A stretch of 64,000 bases of DNA from an uncultured Desulfospira sp. (GTDB lineage Bacteria > Desulfobacterota > Desulfobacteria > Desulfobacterales > Desulfobacteraceae): contig OY760175.1 of assembly GCA_963663165.1 (NCBI GenBank), positions 2,464,001 through 2,528,000 on the forward strand, read 5' to 3'. The position numbers and the translations under genes are program-made. Positions within the stretch are counted from its first letter, which is position 1. Every line of letters begins with the position of its first letter. Below, piece after piece: positions 107 through 10,936 of this stretch. The notes below the pieces were generated by a model, which worked only from the letters and a program-made list of their open reading frames with translations, had not been told where the DNA came from and did not search any database.

Positions 107-898
107 ATGCTTAACGTCAACAATCTGTATCATGCATTTGGCCGTCGGAAAGTCCTGGAAGATATTGAATTTTCCGTGGACAAAGGGGAGCTTTGCGGCC
201 TTTTCGGTCCCAATGGGTCGGGCAAGACCACCCTGTTCCAGTGCTGTTTAGGGTTTATCCGCCCGGACAAAGGCCACGTCCGTTTAAAGGACAAAGACAT
301 CCGGAAAATGACCATCCGGGAGATGGCACAGCATGTGGCCTATGTCCCCCAGCACCATACCCAGCCCTTTCCCTACCCGGTAAAGGAGATGGTTCTTATG
401 GGAAGGACCCCCCACATGAGAGGCTTTTACAAACCGTCCAAAAAAGACCTGGCTGCGGCCCAAGCCGCCATGGCGCAGGTGGGGATTATGGACCTGGCCA
501 ATGACCCTTTTGATATTCTGTCCGGAGGCCAGCAGCAGCTGGTCTTAATTGCCCGGGCCATCGCCCAGAACACGGACCTGATTTTTCTGGACGAACCCAC
601 ATCAGCCCTGGATTTTAAAAACCAGGCCCTGGTCTGGAAAGCCCTAAGGCAGATTGCCGACCAGGGAACGGGCATCCTGGCATGCAGCCATGATCCCAAC
701 CATGTGGCCTGGTTCTGCGATACCACGGTTGTTTTAAGCGCTGCCGGTCTTGTGGCCAGGGGGGCGCCGGACCAGGTGTTTTCCCAGGAACTGATGGATG
801 AAATTTACACCGACGCCTGCGAGGTCTCCCGGGCCATGGACTTGAAAATCATCCTGCCCAGCGGCCTGACCGGACATGGCACGCGGGCTGCGGGATGA
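107..898 (+). CDS. Metal-chelate (siderophore/cobalamin-type) ABC transporter ATP-binding protein
   Basis: Walker A GPNGSGKT, LSGGQ signature, LDEPT, SHD; FecE/FepC-like. Confidence 0.9.
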   Translation: MLNVNNLYHAFGRRKVLEDIEFSVDKGELCGLFGPNGSGKTTLFQCCLGFIRPDKGHVRLKDKDIRKMTIREMAQHVAYVPQHHTQPFPYPVKEMVLMGRTPHMRGFYKPSKKDLAAAQAAMAQVGIMDLANDPFDILSGGQQQLVLIARAIAQNTDLIFLDEPTSALDFKNQALVWKALRQIADQGTGILACSHDPNHVAWFCDTTVVLSAAGLVARGAPDQVFSQELMDEIYTDACEVSRAMDLKIILPSGLTGHGTRAAG

Positions 899-1773
899 TT
901 AACATTGAGGATAATCAAATGGAAGCAAAGATAGCACAAAATATTGACTGGAACCGGGTCTGGGAAGAGCAGACCCTTCTGTGGCAGGACTCTGCCGGAA
1001 AAAGCTGCAAAGAATTCTGGGAAGATGAAGGGGCGGCCCGGGTGTATTCAAAGAAGGCCAGCGGGCCCCGGTCTGAAAGAATAACCAGAACGGTGGCCGG
1101 TCTCGGACTGACCCCGGACACCCGGGTTCTGGATATCGGCGCAGGCCCCGGGAATCTGGCCCTGCCCATGGCGCAAACCGCCCGGTCCGTTACCGCGGTG
1201 GAGCCGTCACCGGGCATGAACCAGGTCATGGCCCGGGGTATTGAAGAACAAAACGCTCAAAATGTCATTCAAATCCGGAAAACCTGGGAAGAAGTTGATA
1301 TAGAAAAGGATCTTGAACCGCCCTATGACCTGGTCCTGGCCTCCATGTCCTTAGGGATGAAAAATATCAGAGCGGCCATTGAAAAAATGAACCGGGTCTG
1401 CCGGGGCCGGGTGGTGATCTTCTGGCATGCCGGGATACCGGGATGGGAGGTCATGCCCAAAACCCTGTGGCCCGAGTTGTTTAACACCGAGTATTACGGC
1501 GGACCCAAAAGTGATGTGCTGTTCCAGGTCCTTTACCAGATGGGGATTTATCCTGAAATCCAGGTCAACGCCAACCAGTTTTTTGAAGTCTTTGCGGACA
1601 TGGAAGAAGCAAAAGCGTTTTACTTTAAACGGTTTACCCGCCTTACCCCCCAGCACGGCACGGCTCTGGAAAATTTTTTATTAAAACACTGTGAAAAAAC
1701 AGACCAGGGCCTGGTCCACGGGTTTTCCCATGACTCCATGCGATTTGAGTGGAAAGTAAAGGAAAAAAAATAA
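895..1773 (+). CDS. Class I SAM-dependent methyltransferase
   Basis: VLDIGAGPG motif I, VEPS acidic motif; ATGA overlap with the upstream gene. Confidence 0.85.
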   Translation: MINIEDNQMEAKIAQNIDWNRVWEEQTLLWQDSAGKSCKEFWEDEGAARVYSKKASGPRSERITRTVAGLGLTPDTRVLDIGAGPGNLALPMAQTARSVTAVEPSPGMNQVMARGIEEQNAQNVIQIRKTWEEVDIEKDLEPPYDLVLASMSLGMKNIRAAIEKMNRVCRGRVVIFWHAGIPGWEVMPKTLWPELFNTEYYGGPKSDVLFQVLYQMGIYPEIQVNANQFFEVFADMEEAKAFYFKRFTRLTPQHGTALENFLLKHCEKTDQGLVHGFSHDSMRFEWKVKEKK

Positions 1774-2990
1774 TGAAAAACATTAACAAAACAGAGAAAG
1801 GGGCCGGATTCTTGAACCGGTTAATTTTGCCTGTACTGGCGATCTGGGCATGTCTTTTAACCACAAGCCCTGCCTTTGGGGAACAGCAGACCGCTGTTAA
1901 GGATTTCAGAGGAAAAACGGTTATGGTGCCGGCTGAAATCAACCGGGTCATCACCATCAGCGACGGATTGGTGGAAGGGGTGATGACCCGCCTGGGCGAA
2001 GCCCATAAAATAGTGGCCATTGGGTCTGAGTGCATCCCCAAGGCATGGTCTTGCGATATTCCCCATAAAAACGGAAGCAGCTTTGCCTTTAAAGACGGCA
2101 TGAACACCGTCACCTATCTTAATCCGAATTTCAAAGACCTGCCCCTGGTGGCCAAATACGGGGTTGGTTTCAGTTACGAAAGGGTGGCGGAACTCTCCCC
2201 TGACCTGATCATTATCCGGACAGGTTCCTGCACCCTGAGCCAGGGAAAGGATATTCTGGACAAAACCATTGGATTACTGGAGGCTTTAGGTATTCCCCTG
2301 GTGGTTCTTCAGGGGCCCAATGCCACATCAAACCCCTGTATTGAATCTATCTCCCGGGAAATCCAGATCATAGGCCAGGTCTTTCAAAAAGAGGATCAGG
2401 CCCTGGCCCTGGCCGGCTATCTTGAATCCTGCGTGGAAATGGTCCGGAAAAGGACCGCCGATCTAACGGCCGGCCAGGAAAAAAGGCTGCTGTTATTGGG
2501 ACTGTCCCCCAAGGCCAGGACCCAGGGCGGGGCCGGTCATGTCAAGGGCGTGGACACCCTTCAGACCTTTCTTTTAGAAGAGGTGATCCGGGCCCAAAAT
2601 GCCTATACCGGCGCCGGGGCCTGGAATATCCTGAATACCGAACAGCTGCTGGCCCTGGACCCGGATCTGATTGTCCTGGTGACGGCCTGGGGATATCATC
2701 CGCCCGAAGAGCTTTATTTTGCGCCTTACTATGAGGGGCTCCGGGAGATGCGGGCCGTTAAAAACAAGGCCGTGGTTTCCCTGCCCTGGACCCCTTGTAA
2801 CTGTGAAAAACGGCTGGAATACCCCATTGATGTCATGGTCATGGCCATGGCCGCTTATCCTGAACGATTCAAGGATATCAGCCTGGAAAAGTGGCTTTTG
2901 GATTTTTATCAAAAGGTCTACAAGGTTGATGAAAAAACCGCAGACCAGCTCATATCCCGCCAGTGGATGGACTGGGTCAGAGGGAAATAA
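1773..2990 (+). CDS. Periplasmic binding protein, Fe-siderophore/B12 (class III) type, Cys-rich
   Basis: Signal peptide ending PAFG, VKDFRGKTVMVP, ERVAELSPDLII, EQLLALDPDLI; WTPCNC motif; start ATG overlaps the upstream TAA. Confidence 0.85.
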   Translation: MKNINKTEKGAGFLNRLILPVLAIWACLLTTSPAFGEQQTAVKDFRGKTVMVPAEINRVITISDGLVEGVMTRLGEAHKIVAIGSECIPKAWSCDIPHKNGSSFAFKDGMNTVTYLNPNFKDLPLVAKYGVGFSYERVAELSPDLIIIRTGSCTLSQGKDILDKTIGLLEALGIPLVVLQGPNATSNPCIESISREIQIIGQVFQKEDQALALAGYLESCVEMVRKRTADLTAGQEKRLLLLGLSPKARTQGGAGHVKGVDTLQTFLLEEVIRAQNAYTGAGAWNILNTEQLLALDPDLIVLVTAWGYHPPEELYFAPYYEGLREMRAVKNKAVVSLPWTPCNCEKRLEYPIDVMVMAMAAYPERFKDISLEKWLLDFYQKVYKVDEKTADQLISRQWMDWVRGK

Positions 2991-2993
2991 ATC

Positions 2994-3641
2994 ATGGGAC
3001 ATCAAATGGATGAACAGGACCGGAAACGGCAGGCCTTCTTTAACCAGGGGGCCAAAGGATGGCTGGATAAATTTTATAAAAATCCGGACACAGACGGCCA
3101 TGACCTGCATCAAGGAAAAATCGGCCAGATTATCCAGGCTCTGGGGGTCAAGCCGGACCACCGGATCCTGGATCTGGGGTGCGGCCCCGGGGTTCTCGTG
3201 CCGTACCTGCTGGAAAAGATGTCCCAAAACAGCCGCCTGGTAGAAATGGATTATGCCCCTGAAATGATTGAGGCGAACAAAAACCTTAACAGGGATAAGC
3301 GGATTTCATTTGAGTGTGCCCATGTCATGGACATGCCTTTTGAGAAGGCTTTCTTTGACCGGGTGATCTGTTTTGCCTGTTTTCCCCATTTCCAGGACCA
3401 GCAAGGGGCCGTCAAAGCCATTGCCCGGGTCCTGAAACCCGAAGGGCGGCTGGTGATTGCCCATCTGTTGTCCTCGGATGAAATAGCCTCCCACCATAAA
3501 GGGCAGACACCGGTTTCAGAAGACCGGCTGCCGCCGCTGGACCATATGGCGGCCTGGCTTTCGGAAAATCATCTTGAAATTAAGCAGTTTACGGACATGC
3601 CCGGCTTTTACTGCCTGGCTGCCGTGAAGGGGTCGGGTTAA
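2994..3641 (+). CDS. Class I SAM-dependent methyltransferase (UbiE-like)
   Basis: ILDLGCGPG motif I, MPF..FD, RVLKPEGRL. Confidence 0.85.
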   Translation: MGHQMDEQDRKRQAFFNQGAKGWLDKFYKNPDTDGHDLHQGKIGQIIQALGVKPDHRILDLGCGPGVLVPYLLEKMSQNSRLVEMDYAPEMIEANKNLNRDKRISFECAHVMDMPFEKAFFDRVICFACFPHFQDQQGAVKAIARVLKPEGRLVIAHLLSSDEIASHHKGQTPVSEDRLPPLDHMAAWLSENHLEIKQFTDMPGFYCLAAVKGSG

Positions 3642-3656
3642 CCGGCCATAACGATT

Positions 3657-3799
3657 GGGAAAACAAAAGCCCCATCCTGGCAGAGACATGGCTTTTGTTT
3701 TCCCGTATCCTCCAGGGGAGGAAATTTCAACATATCAGCTGATTTCCTCTCCTGTCAATCAATCCGGATCAGGGAAAACCACATTTTTCCCTGATCCGG
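3657..3799. other. Three consecutive stem-loops upstream of the TonB receptor
   Basis: Inverted repeats at 3657-3704, 3713-3754 and 3764-3799. Confidence 0.7.
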
Positions 3800-3835
3800 G
3801 GGTTAACGCTAATTTTTAAAAAGGAGAGGAAAATC

Positions 3836-5945
3836 ATGCACAAACTGACGGCGGCAGCCAAAGCCGTATTCCCGATGCTCTTCTGGCTTGCCCTATGTCT
3901 TTTTCCCGGGATTGCGCTATCCCAGGAAGCTCAGAAAGACGATAAAGAGATCGTCGAGCTTGAAGAGGTCACGGTTATAGGAACCCAGCCGGGTGTGGAT
4001 ATCACGGCTGAAAAAACCGTGATTGACATGGATCAATTCAAAAAACCCGGGTCCACCGCCACCTTGACCGATGTGCTTTCGGAAATCGGCGGTGTAGATG
4101 TCCAGCGGGCCAATGCCCTTATGGCAAGCCCGGGGGACGAGGTCTCCATCAGGGGACTTAACGAAGGACGGATGGTCATAGAAATTGATGGCCGGCGGAT
4201 CAACCACACCGGCCATTACGGGCGGTATATCGTGGACTGGTCCACCCTGACCCTGGATGATGTGGAAAAAATTGAAATTATCCGAGGCGGTCACTCGGTC
4301 CTTCACCCCTTTGCCATTGGCGGGGTAATCAACATTATTACCAAAAAAGGGCCTAAAGACGGCCAGAAATTCAGCGGTCATGTCAATACCGGGTACGGCC
4401 GGTACAACACCTGGACTGCCACGGCATCGGTTGCCGGCAGCGCCAGCGAATATGTGGATTTCCACCTTTCAGGCGGTGAACAGGAAACCGATGGCTATTT
4501 AAGAAACAATTTCCAGGACACCAAATCCTTATAACGGGCACGTGGACATCCACCTGCCTTGTGAGGCAAACATTTATCTTGGCATTAAACATACCGAGAT
4601 AGAATACGGCATGCCCGTGGTCAATGACCCCAATGATTCAAATCCGGCCATTGCCGCCCTTTATGATTCAAGCTACCCCATATTCACCCGGGGGTCCGAC
4701 CAGCTGCGCCATTTGAACTGGCCCCAGTATCCGGGCGGACAAACCCCCATGTGGGAAAAAAAAACCGATTACCTGGACGCCATTTTCACCATACCGGCAG
4801 GCCCGGGCACCATAAAGATTCATGGATTTATGACCGACGGGCACCGAAGGACCAGCCTTTACGCCAAGTCCGGTGCATTTGATGAAAATGTGCTGTCAAG
4901 GGACCGGACTCAAGGCGTGATTGCAGAGTATTCGGATGTGGAATTGTTTGACAACCACAGCCTTACCATGGGCCTGGAATACCAGGAACTGGGCGATCCC
5001 GAAGGCATCAAGGCCATTTACCGTGTCAAATCAGCCTATATTCAAGATGTCATCTCCATAGGCAGCAAATGGACGGTTACCCCGGGGGTCCGGTATTACC
5101 ACCTGGATGAATCCACCTATTATTCCTGGATGGAAATGGGATTCGCTTCCCAGCCCCCCGGATGGCCCTTTGCCTTTGACAACAGCGAAAAAAAAGAAAC
5201 CGACTCGGATTTTTTTCCCAGTCTAAAGGTGGATTACAGGGTCACCCCGGATACCACCTTATACGCGGCAGCCTCAAAGTCCTACCGGCTGCCCTGCCCT
5301 TGAGATTACTACTGGTGGGCGCGGTGCGCCTCCGAGACCAATACGAATCTTGAACCTGAGACCGCTACAGAGTACGAAATCGGCATCATCAAAAGCTTTG
5401 ACAAAGTCCATTTCAGGGCAGCCACCTGGTATTACGATATTAAAAATTTTATTAACGACAACGGGATTACAGCCCCGGGCTCCGGAGCAGGCTCCAATTG
5501 TCTTTACAATATTGATTCCGTGGAGCTGTACGGGTTTGAACTGGAAGCCGCCCTTCATTTAAGTAAAAAAATCAAGCTGACCGCATCCTATGTGTACCAG
5601 GAACACGACGTCACCCAGACCGGGTATGAGCAGGACTGGAGCTATTACCTGCCGGCAAGCCTTCCCAAGCACAAGGTCAAGGTCCTGGCCGGATATGAAA
5701 TCATCCCGGACGGCTGGATTGAGCTAAGCTCCCGGTTTGTCGGCTCCAGGGGTTCCCAGCAGAACAACGAGCTGGACGACTATATTGTCTGTGACTTAGG
5801 ATTCAGCAAAAAGCTGATCTTTGGCGGCCTGGAATATGACTTAAAATTATATGTCAACAATATCACCGGCACGGATTATGAAGAAGTGGCCGGCTACCCC
5901 ATGCCTGAATATGTCTGGGGCATGTCATTAGGGGTTAGTTTTTAA
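3836..5945 (+). CDS. TonB-dependent receptor, probable selenoprotein (Sec at TGA 5301-5303), with one extra-base frameshift near 4530
   Basis: Signal peptide, TonB-box-like ELEEVTVIG, plug motifs SIRG and IEIIRGG..GGVINIITK, barrel motif LEPETA..YEIG, C-terminal Phe; ORFs 4542-5303 and 5520-5945 share one frame that is open across the TGA. Confidence 0.85.
5314..5333 (+). promoter_or_regulatory. Bacterial SECIS-like hairpin
   Basis: GG-U(bulge)-GGGCGC-GGU-GCGCCU-CC starting 10 nt after the in-frame UGA; bulged U and GGU loop resemble the E. coli fdhF SECIS. Confidence 0.75.
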
Positions 5946-5991
5946 CATCGCTGTCAGCGGTTAGCTTTTGACTGATGGTTCACAGTGTTTA

Positions 5992-6033
5992 AACTTTAAC
6001 CACGGGGCAGCTGCCTGCCCCGTGGTTAAAGTT
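5992..6033. terminator. 19-bp perfect hairpin between convergent genes
   Basis: AACTTTAACCACGGGGCAG-ctgc-CTGCCCCGTGGTTAAAGTT. Confidence 0.7.
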
Positions 6034-6084
6034 CTTAAAACCTGAAAAGAACGATACCCCCCCCCCCCGGAATCGGGCAGGCCG

Positions 6085-6915
6085 TCAATTATCCGTATGG
6101 GCCGGCATATACGCAACCTGTTTGTTAACCGGGATCTGGGCATTTGGCAATGTCTTGGGATCGGTTACAAAATCGGTTAGGGTTTGCCACTTCACCCGGC
6201 CGCTTTTGAAAAATTCCTTATACACATCCCACCAGTCATCTTTCAAACCGCTCAGATGGGTTTGGGCTACCAGAATCACGCGATCAACGTCTATGTTATT
6301 TAGTAACGCCTTGAAATCTTGAGGTGTTGCCTTCCTGGAGGCTAAGGATTCATCACATAATGAGCCGGTGCCCATCTCTTTGGACGGGACATTACTGACG
6401 GAGATAATGGTTGATTTATACTCCAGGGGCCGGTAAAAAACCGCCCTCTCTTTTCCGGTTCCCCTGGCCAGAATATACGGGATTCCCATCTCATCGGCAA
6501 TTTTCAAGGTATTGTCATCATATGAAAAATATTTACCGCTAAAAACCGGTATGGGTTTTCCAATCAACGGGGAAAGCTTTTCATTGATGTGCTGCATGAT
6601 GATTTTTTGTATTTCATAATGGGTCTTATCGCCTGGTTTATCAACTTTAATCCATTCAGGCAGGCTTGCCAGCATATCCCCATGGGTCTCAGGCCATAAG
6701 GCCCCGTCATTGTAGGATGCGCCCACGTCAAAATTTTTGCTCACGGCCTCTTTAATTATTCCCGGTTGATTTTCAATGGTGGCGCCGTCAGCCATAACCA
6801 ATGCCGGTATGTTATTCTCATTTAAACGATCAAGCCAGCGGATCAACCCTTTTTCAGATTTTCTATCGACCAGTAAAAACAATCCCTGCATTGATTTGTC
6901 CTTAATGCTGCTCAT
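6085..6915 (-). CDS. Polysaccharide-deacetylase/NodB-fold-like protein, paralogue of 10085-10936
   Basis: Long near-identical blocks shared with 10085-10936 (e.g. VFSGKYFSYDDNTLKIADEMGIPYILARGT); layout resembles the CE4 fold. Confidence 0.55.
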   Translation of the reverse strand: MSSIKDKSMQGLFLLVDRKSEKGLIRWLDRLNENNIPALVMADGATIENQPGIIKEAVSKNFDVGASYNDGALWPETHGDMLASLPEWIKVDKPGDKTHYEIQKIIMQHINEKLSPLIGKPIPVFSGKYFSYDDNTLKIADEMGIPYILARGTGKERAVFYRPLEYKSTIISVSNVPSKEMGTGSLCDESLASRKATPQDFKALLNNIDVDRVILVAQTHLSGLKDDWWDVYKEFFKSGRVKWQTLTDFVTDPKTLPNAQIPVNKQVAYMPAHTDN

Positions 6916-10084: not shown

Positions 10085-10936
10085 TTAAACCATCCGACCG
10101 GCAATTCTCGCCTGACTCAAATGGATCGCCCGGTAATCGACCTCTTTGTTCACCGGAATCTGGGCATTGGGCAAATCCTGAGGCTCGGTTACGAAATCGG
10201 TTAAGGTTTGCCAGTTCACCCGGCCGCTTTTAAAAAAGTCCTCGTACACATCCCACCATTCATCTATCAGGCCGCTGACATGGGTTTGGGCGACCAGAAT
10301 AACACGGTCAACATCCAAGCTGTCCAATACCTTTTTAAAATCCTGAGGGGTTTCATTCCGGGTCTCTAAGGATTCATCACATAAAGAGCCGGTGCCCAGT
10401 TCTTTGGAAGGGACATTGCTTACGGAGACGATGGTTGGTTTATATTCCCGGGGCTGATAAAAGACAGCCCTTTCCTTTTGGGTTCCCCGGGCCAGGATAT
10501 ACGGGATCCCCATCTCGTCGGCAATTTTCAAGGTATTGTCATCATATGAAAAATATTTACCGCTAAAAACCGACATTGTCTTTCCGGTCAATGGGAAAAG
10601 CTTGTCATTGATGTGCTGCATGATAATTTTCTGTATTTCATAATTGGATTTTGAATATGGGTCTTTCACCTCAATCCATTCGGGCAGCCATGCCAGCATA
10701 TCGTCATGGGTTTCAGGCCAGAAGGCCCCTTCATTGTATGAGACGCCCATGTCAAAATTGCGTTTCACAATCTCCTTGATCAATTCCGGTTGATTTTCAA
10801 CGGTTGCGCCGTCAGCCAGCACCAGTGCCGGCATCTCATTTTGACTTAGATAATCCAGCCAACGGATCAACCCTTTTTCCGTTCTTCTATCAACCAGCAG
10901 AAACAAGCCCTGTATAGGCTTATTATTGTTGTTCAT
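10085..10936 (-). CDS. Polysaccharide-deacetylase/NodB-fold-like protein, paralogue of 6085-6915
   Basis: Strong similarity to 6085-6915 over the full length. Confidence 0.55.
   Translation of the reverse strand: MNNNNKPIQGLFLLVDRRTEKGLIRWLDYLSQNEMPALVLADGATVENQPELIKEIVKRNFDMGVSYNEGAFWPETHDDMLAWLPEWIEVKDPYSKSNYEIQKIIMQHINDKLFPLTGKTMSVFSGKYFSYDDNTLKIADEMGIPYILARGTQKERAVFYQPREYKPTIVSVSNVPSKELGTGSLCDESLETRNETPQDFKKVLDSLDVDRVILVAQTHVSGLIDEWWDVYEDFFKSGRVNWQTLTDFVTEPQDLPNAQIPVNKEVDYRAIHLSQARIAGRMV

Follow-up and report, generated by a model that had tools for sequence, protein, structure and literature searches.

The receptor gene at 3836-5945 of the window (the whole 64,000-nt stretch of DNA analysed) very likely belongs to the PCPU family of selenocysteine (Sec)-containing TonB-dependent receptors found in sulfate reducers, and is probably inactivated in this strain through a recent +1 insertion. 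The features of the operon, its leader and the receptor gene are as follows.

G000:C1:2463054-2464094 (source-genome coordinates), just upstream of the window: FecCD permease
107..898, plus strand: ABC ATPase of the operon
895..1773, plus strand: class I SAM methyltransferase, a conserved neighbour
1749..2990, plus strand: periplasmic binding protein (Peripla_BP_2) with a conserved PWTPCNC and further Cys
2994..3641, plus strand: second class I SAM methyltransferase, a conserved neighbour
3657..3704, no strand assigned: hairpin P1, with a consensus fold that is stabler on the minus strand; terminator-like in some copies
3713..3754, plus strand: inverted repeat P2, the right arm of which is the spacer of the antisense promoter
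3729..3758, minus strand: antisense sigma-70-type promoter, TTGACA-N18-TATGTT with a TG extension; predicted RNA of ~70 nt running through P1
3836..4534, plus strand: 5' part of the receptor gene (signal peptide, plug and first barrel strands), 232 aa, ending at a premature TAA (4532-4534); from the ORF list and NF049947 positions 19-227 (378 bits)
4531..4531, plus strand: strain-specific, frame-shifting insertion of one base (A); from comparison with relatives, contigs of sequencing runs and blastn against L005
4532..5945, plus strand: 3' remainder of the receptor gene (barrel), which lies in a second frame and reaches TAA 5943-5945 without a stop when TGA is taken as Sec; from NF049947 positions 227-685 (794 bits)
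5292..5303, plus strand: P-C-P-U motif, with TGA 5301-5303 as the Sec codon; from TGA in 18/18 loci, the model of a relative and a PhuR alignment
5314..5333, plus strand: bacterial SECIS hairpin, apical loop 19-20 nt past the UGA, G first in the loop

NCBIfam release 20.0 (June 2026) contains the model NF049947.1 (TonB_dep_PCPU, "TonB-dependent receptor, PCPU motif-type") together with three sister models. An intact relative with 95% identity scores 1196.6 bits against the NF049947 cut-off of 800, and the two pieces in the window score 378 and 794 bits on non-overlapping parts of the model; because the gene is split, neither piece passes the cut-off alone. One of the traits that define membership, P-C-P-U after an (F/Y)RxP barrel motif, is present here. 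The preliminary description had presented the receptor as hidden and perhaps unreported, a view that does not stand, since NCBI curates exactly this family and the Sec receptor family is thus already known. As far as the accessible parts of both sources go, the deep-Sep study (2025, PMC12013277) reported a TonB-dependent receptor as a new selenoprotein, and a 2026 review (PMC13188914) gives that receptor as the FCYXU type. No paper naming PCPU or NF049947 in the present sense was found in the literature searched, which lay mostly outside subscription journals and bioRxiv supplements.

Sec decoding had been proposed from the run YRLPCP followed by TGA 5301-5303, and the layout described for it was confirmed: the frame beyond the TGA is open to TAA 5943-5945, and the 72 codons from the TGA to the next listed start (5520) contain LEPETATEYEIG. 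TGA occupies the Sec column in all 18 distinct family loci, the window included (duplicates L009, L030 and L031 left out), and the homologue alignment shows TGA throughout with a conserved hairpin, not Trp, Arg or variable residues; none of the outcomes that the preliminary description had listed against Sec, among them a genome lacking selABC, was observed. In other genomes, matches above the NF049947 cut-off came from 4 of 301 in the order and 7 of 401 in the phylum, and all 11 have exactly one internal TGA. In the source genome, selA, selB and selD were identified above their cut-offs and tRNA-Sec (selC) is also present, and the selD gene bears a similar hairpin. Among the carrier genomes, selA is present in 15/15 and selB in 14/15, the genome without a selB match being 83% complete. 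In the sister families, the Sec column is occupied by U or C. Cys was found there only in the sister CU clade (L018, P0123 and P0127), and no Cys version of PCPU occurs among the 18 loci and 120 listed proteins.

The hairpin that had been drawn, GG-U-GGGCGC-GGU-GCGCCU-CC, begins 10 nt past the TGA and is the minimum free energy (MFE) fold. It can form here, but the register conserved in the family is one base off, with a G-U-G loop and 7 bp. As a family-wide structure the original register was rejected, as it showed no covariation (its score was reached by 466 of 500 shuffles), whereas in the shifted register the 7-bp stem with a G-first triloop covaries over 24 PCPU and PUIUD sequences (0 of 500 shuffles); the receptor gene here is able to form either. 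Stability above that of shuffled sequences was not seen in four windows (z -0.08 to -1.57), and the significance of the hairpin therefore lies in its conservation and not in its stability. Four of the five SECIS codons are at least 90% fixed, compared with 2 of 156 conserved codons elsewhere, a strong synonymous constraint although third-position G+C spans 0.37-0.93, to be read with the caveat that the protein itself fixes much of the hairpin sequence. The bacterial SECIS criteria, as given in the accessible part of PMC13188914, are a loop of 3-9 nt, a stem of 4-16 bp, G in the first two loop positions, a distance of 16-37 nt from the UGA and an MFE of at most -7.5 kcal/mol; a check by hand gave a loop of 3 nt, a stem of 6-7 bp, G in first position, 19-20 nt and -12.6 kcal/mol, so that the hairpin fits the published model. 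Judged from these sequence features, SelB bound to the SECIS would almost certainly read the UGA as Sec in intact members.

The spacer between the second methyltransferase gene and the receptor gene (3642-3835) holds a conserved element at 3655-3760, consisting of P1, P2 and a terminal GTCAA. Its antisense promoter is the best promoter-like site within 3500-6100, and TTGACA-N17/18-TAnnnn was found in the same register in 32 of 36 copies (12/14 training and 20/22 new), a count that is partly circular because the search model, built from 14 copies, includes those columns. Covariation was seen in P1 and in a small second hairpin (72 double changes vs. 30 expected, 0/500 shuffles), and the element consensus folds more stably as the minus strand (-13.0 kcal/mol) than as the plus strand (-6.6 kcal/mol). 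The antisense RNA is predicted at a median of 75 nt, with a U-rich tail in 17 of 36 copies; in this strain the tail is weak and did not yield a terminator call. P2 reaches significance in just 18/36 copies. In this strain, its right arm is also complementary to the ribosome-binding site of the receptor gene, and the anti-Shine-Dalgarno pairing reaches -20.5 kcal/mol; such pairing beats controls at the 5% level in 6 of 34 copies, which rules out an anti-Shine-Dalgarno leader switch as a general mechanism.

Where the receptor gene is first in its operon, a leader order often seen (L060-L062, L064, L065, L068 and L074) consists of a promoter, a GCGGCAGAAGCC-like motif, a GCCACGAAGG...CTTCGTGGC-U-tract terminator, GGAGGTG and the element; the GCGGCAGAAGCC-like motif presumably recalls the ops site of RfaH. 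No conserved ORF for a leader peptide was found after the GGAGGTG motif. The element had no match in Rfam 15 at the gathering threshold (best weak match 21.7 bits vs. 62), nor did a second copy at E up to 1, and a known riboswitch in the leader was ruled out on this ground. No description of the element was found in the literature searched. These data suggest that the element may be a cis-antisense regulator with a predicted RNA of ~75 nt; it looks real and is less familiar than the Sec receptor family.

Four copies of the element (one of them a training copy) were identified in the source genome, each directly upstream of a TonB receptor gene. The other three are located at G000:C1:355236-355371, 3104863-3104987 and 4258045-4258175 (L059-L061, L093-L095), and their operons carry NikA/NikB-like, DUF4198 and CooC-like P-loop genes, the Nik scores being below cut-off; "CooC-like" is used here as a presumptive label for PF01656 matches. 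The receptor at the 4258045-4258175 copy is a Cys version near the FCYXU family (685 bits vs. the cut-off of 825). Within the order, 18 of 151 genomes gave matches, and for the phylum 6 of 151 did. Searches of the order and of the source genome yielded 22 non-training places (five identical copies in one genome were counted once), of which 15 are before TonB receptors, two before DUF4198 and two unclear, with one each before a nucleoside-hydrolase-like gene (FmdE-fusion type), a tetrapyrrole methylase and an [FeFe] hydrogenase. Four new places came from the phylum: two before receptors, one representing the same element matched in reverse and one without a called ORF.

Both here and in L001-L005, the receptor is the last member of an operon for a FecCD permease, an ATPase, a methyltransferase, a Cys-rich binding protein and a methyltransferase. 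The sequence PWTPCNCEKRL is present in the binding protein (1749-2990) in all nine loci of this operon type (one a duplicate), together with 5-9 Cys. The model of the intact relative (P0002, 701 aa; pLDDT 82.7) is a plug-and-barrel receptor with 22 strands, in which C-P-U opens a short helix in an extracellular loop just past strand 472-482; alignment with FRTPT...NPNL of PhuR likewise places P-C-P-U in an extracellular loop after the (F/Y)RxP motif. The top fold matches, FecA, OprC and PirA, are tied (Z 34-36) and thus carry no information on cargo; fold searches were set aside as a guide to it, since they returned generic receptor matches and did not rank cargoes. Residues C486, U488, C496, C554, H126, H291 and H611 (numbering of the relative) are invariant in 17/17 PCPU rows, H126 being in the plug and H291 in a loop. 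The three Cys and the Sec, together with H126 and H291, most likely make up a thiolate/selenolate metal site at the mouth of the barrel, and capture of a soft metal by the receptor would be plausible. Such a site would capture a soft transition metal or extract it from a chelate, TonB would open the plug, and the Cys-rich binding protein, by its sequence a likely thiolate partner for the cargo, would carry it onward with the FecCD permease.

We regard it as an even question whether the cargo is Ni or Co, free or chelated. The neighbours of distant carriers include secreted tetrapyrrole-methylase-like proteins, DUF4198, FmdE fusions, an amino-acid permease and TonB/ExbBD, and NikR lies next to the receptor once among the carriers. 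Counted in favour of Ni or Co were the FecCD-type ABC transporter, the DUF4198, FmdE and tetrapyrrole-methylase-like neighbours, the single NikR, and the presence of the upstream element also before receptors adjoining NikA/NikB-like and CooC-like genes; counted against were the scores of the Nik-like neighbours below cut-offs and Zn binding by DUF4198 in the one member studied. According to the accessible part of PMC12663993, DUF4198 is a periplasmic metal-buffering protein that is linked to Zn in Neisseria and binds Co, Ni and Cu in vitro. NikR_C had no match in the source genome (96.7% complete assembly), a result likewise counted against Ni or Co, and control by NikR was therefore ruled out here.

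Somewhat short of an even chance is given to a different cargo, namely a corrinoid or other tetrapyrrole, Zn or Cu, Mo or W or a selenium compound, or to C-x-U serving as a redox gate or metal reducer. This alternative competes with the cargo step only and leaves Sec real. The tetrapyrrole-methylase-like and FmdE neighbours fit it, as do the position of the motif in the FRAP/NPNL loop of heme receptors, the Zn link of DUF4198 in Neisseria (PMC12663993, accessible part) and the rank of OprC among the top fold matches, tied with FecA; against it, no cobalamin riboswitch lies upstream of the receptor in the seven loci scanned, the OprC site combines plug Cys/Met with barrel His/Met whereas PCPU has Cys/Sec in barrel loops, and, in this genome, the remaining operons that bear the element look Nik- and CooC-like. 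No cargo or mechanism for any Sec-containing outer-membrane transporter was found in the literature searched. In one relative, a cobalamin riboswitch is located directly 3' of the receptor gene (L002:9508-9700).

Taking the leader and the receptor together, we tentatively propose, at less than even confidence, that an undescribed cis-antisense sRNA gene (TTGAC[AG]-N17/18-TA[TA]AA[TA], ~75 nt, terminal hairpin with a conserved GC-rich loop) defines, by leader pairing, a TonB-receptor metal-uptake regulon in Desulfobacterota, with the Sec loop as a surface selenolate capture site for Ni or Co. Such a regulon, if true, would include Sec receptors, in genomes without NikR such as this one; the signal that switches the element with its antisense promoter would give a clue to what is transported, and it would be unusual chemistry for a selenolate site on the cell surface to scavenge Ni or Co in sulfidic sediments.

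The receptor region comprises 2110 nt, in which the frame starting at ATG 3836 closes at TAA 4532-4534 and the TGA-bearing part lies in a different frame. A receptor of 702 aa with C-P-U at 487-489 had been described as a single frame, overlooking the +1 insertion at 4531; those figures hold only when the extra base A4531 is ignored. A functional member has a single frame apart from the Sec codon, which this copy does not, owing to the insertion and the TAA that follows it. By blastn of L005 (95% identical) against the source genome, A4531 is the sole frame-breaking indel within the receptor gene. The loci L001-L005 (68-95% identical) contain a single unbroken frame without A4531, and the contigs of sequencing runs X5 and X6 (a strain with ~94% identity) also lack the base. 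In runs X1 and X2, A4531 is present with no variant, in one 3706-nt contig each with 0 differences at depths of 122 and 212, and no alternative contig without it is listed in either run. Both runs come from a single sample that may itself have given rise to this assembly, and rare variants are lost from contigs; the contigs are therefore not independent proof of the insertion, and a minority allele may exist in the population. Downstream of the stop, the second frame offers GTG 4542, which has neither a ribosome-binding site nor a signal peptide, and for lack of the latter no receptor would be made in this strain. It is highly probable that the insertion is real and that translation in this strain halts at codon 233.

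This gene copy is thus probably a recent pseudogene, inactivated by the +1 insertion. The preliminary description had warned that standard annotation would wrongly call the gene a pseudogene; that call is probably right here, owing to the insertion, a lesion separate from the Sec codon. Codon changes on this lineage numbered 10 non-synonymous and 36 synonymous, compared with 13 and 32 in L005, and this absence of excess amino-acid change indicates that the loss, if real, was recent; relaxed selection, as proof of a pseudogene, was not seen, a result that is compatible with a recent event and does not prove one. The other genes of the operon are intact and neighbouring genes are of normal length. 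The closest intact paralogue in the genome (G000:C1:4482064-4484133, L026) carries T-G-M instead of C-P-U, in which Met occupies the Sec column, and might compensate for the broken gene.

That the living strain still has an intact gene, A4531 being a sequencing or assembly error or an allele of part of the population, is unlikely; a full-length selenoprotein would then be made. The lack of excess amino-acid change, the intact state of the rest of the operon and the possible origin of the assembly from X1 and X2 would all agree with an intact gene; nevertheless, the insertion is not a homopolymer extension, two runs gave a zero-difference contig each at depths of 122 and 212, the receptor gene has no further frame-breaking indel, and a recent loss would likewise show no decay. 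A programmed +1 frameshift or phase-variation switch gating receptor synthesis is very improbable. Some +1 shift sites have a stop codon right after the shift point, as is the case here, but A4531 is missing from L001-L005 and from X5 and X6, no repeat tract surrounds it, and every other family member has one unbroken frame; a programmed shift at 4531 was rejected for this want of conservation.

Least credible of all is a family of split or truncated genes in which the TGA terminates translation or is decoded as Trp or Cys: among the 120 protein matches listed (192 in total), gene callers end 117 at R.PCP, one at RLPCG and two elsewhere, but conservation extends over the 214 downstream codons, which complete the barrel, the SECIS is under constraint, carriers possess the Sec machinery, and the conservation of TGA together with tRNA-Sec as the only TCA-anticodon tRNA in the genome rules out termination and Trp/Cys read-through. 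Nearly the whole family is cut at the UGA by gene callers and is therefore mis-annotated in metagenomes. Good as its Sec signal is, the copy described here should be treated as a probable pseudogene.

Several other features were found in and around the window. A long inverted repeat 3' of the receptor gene (5992-6038) lies between convergent genes and is probably a two-way terminator. Two paralogous proteins of ~280 aa, both containing GSLCDES, are encoded on the minus strand at 6085-6915 and 10085-10936; neither Pfam nor NCBIfam gave a match for the former. Just upstream of the window, a ~100-bp repeat (L027:12790-12960; G000:C1:2462790-2462960) ends in a terminator-like hairpin. It has well over a hundred blastn matches genome-wide, some in tandem and one adjoining the 3' end of tRNA-Sec, and has no credible Rfam match.

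In comparison with the known families, motif and position are identical to those of NF049947, the name of which states no cargo, and this copy differs in being frameshifted at 4531. Members of NF049944 (PUIUD) and NF049946 (CU) share ~28-35% identity and have Sec in the same loop column with the SECIS at equal distance, whereas the sister motifs U-I-U, C-U and CxxU differ from PCPU; Cys versions were seen in the CU clade and not in PCPU. The fourth model, NF049945 (FCYXU), is that of the deep-Sep receptor, as far as the accessible parts of PMC12013277 and PMC13188914 indicate, and PUIUD- and FCYXU-type genes are often accompanied by the same upstream element as PCPU.

Identity to the copper transporter OprC of Pseudomonas aeruginosa is 17%. 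According to the accessible part of PMC8610252, its site consists of plug Cys143/Met147 and barrel His323/Met325 with a methionine track, whereas the invariant Cys/Sec of PCPU lie in barrel loops, with no CxxxM and with none of the Cys at 486, 496 and 554 in the plug; scores against the copper-receptor model TIGR01778 were 16 and 21 bits vs. 472. The YRLP...LEPE segment of PCPU aligns with FRTP...NPNLKPE of PhuR, in the FRAP/NPNL loop that holds the heme-binding His in most heme receptors (PMC3792355, accessible part). Compared with the heme receptors (PhuR, ShuA and ChuA), PCPU has C-P-U and a further Cys instead of the His, and PCPU scores 150 vs. the TIGR01785 cut-off of 317. For the upstream element, the nearest parallels are cis-antisense leader regulators, namely the plasmid CopA/RNAI type and RNA-beta of the Vibrio anguillarum iron-transport operon. 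Like the predicted element, these give a short counter-transcript from a promoter inside the leader, with a GC-rich hairpin at the end; the element described here shares no sequence or Rfam match with them and is tied to TonB receptor genes of Desulfobacterota.
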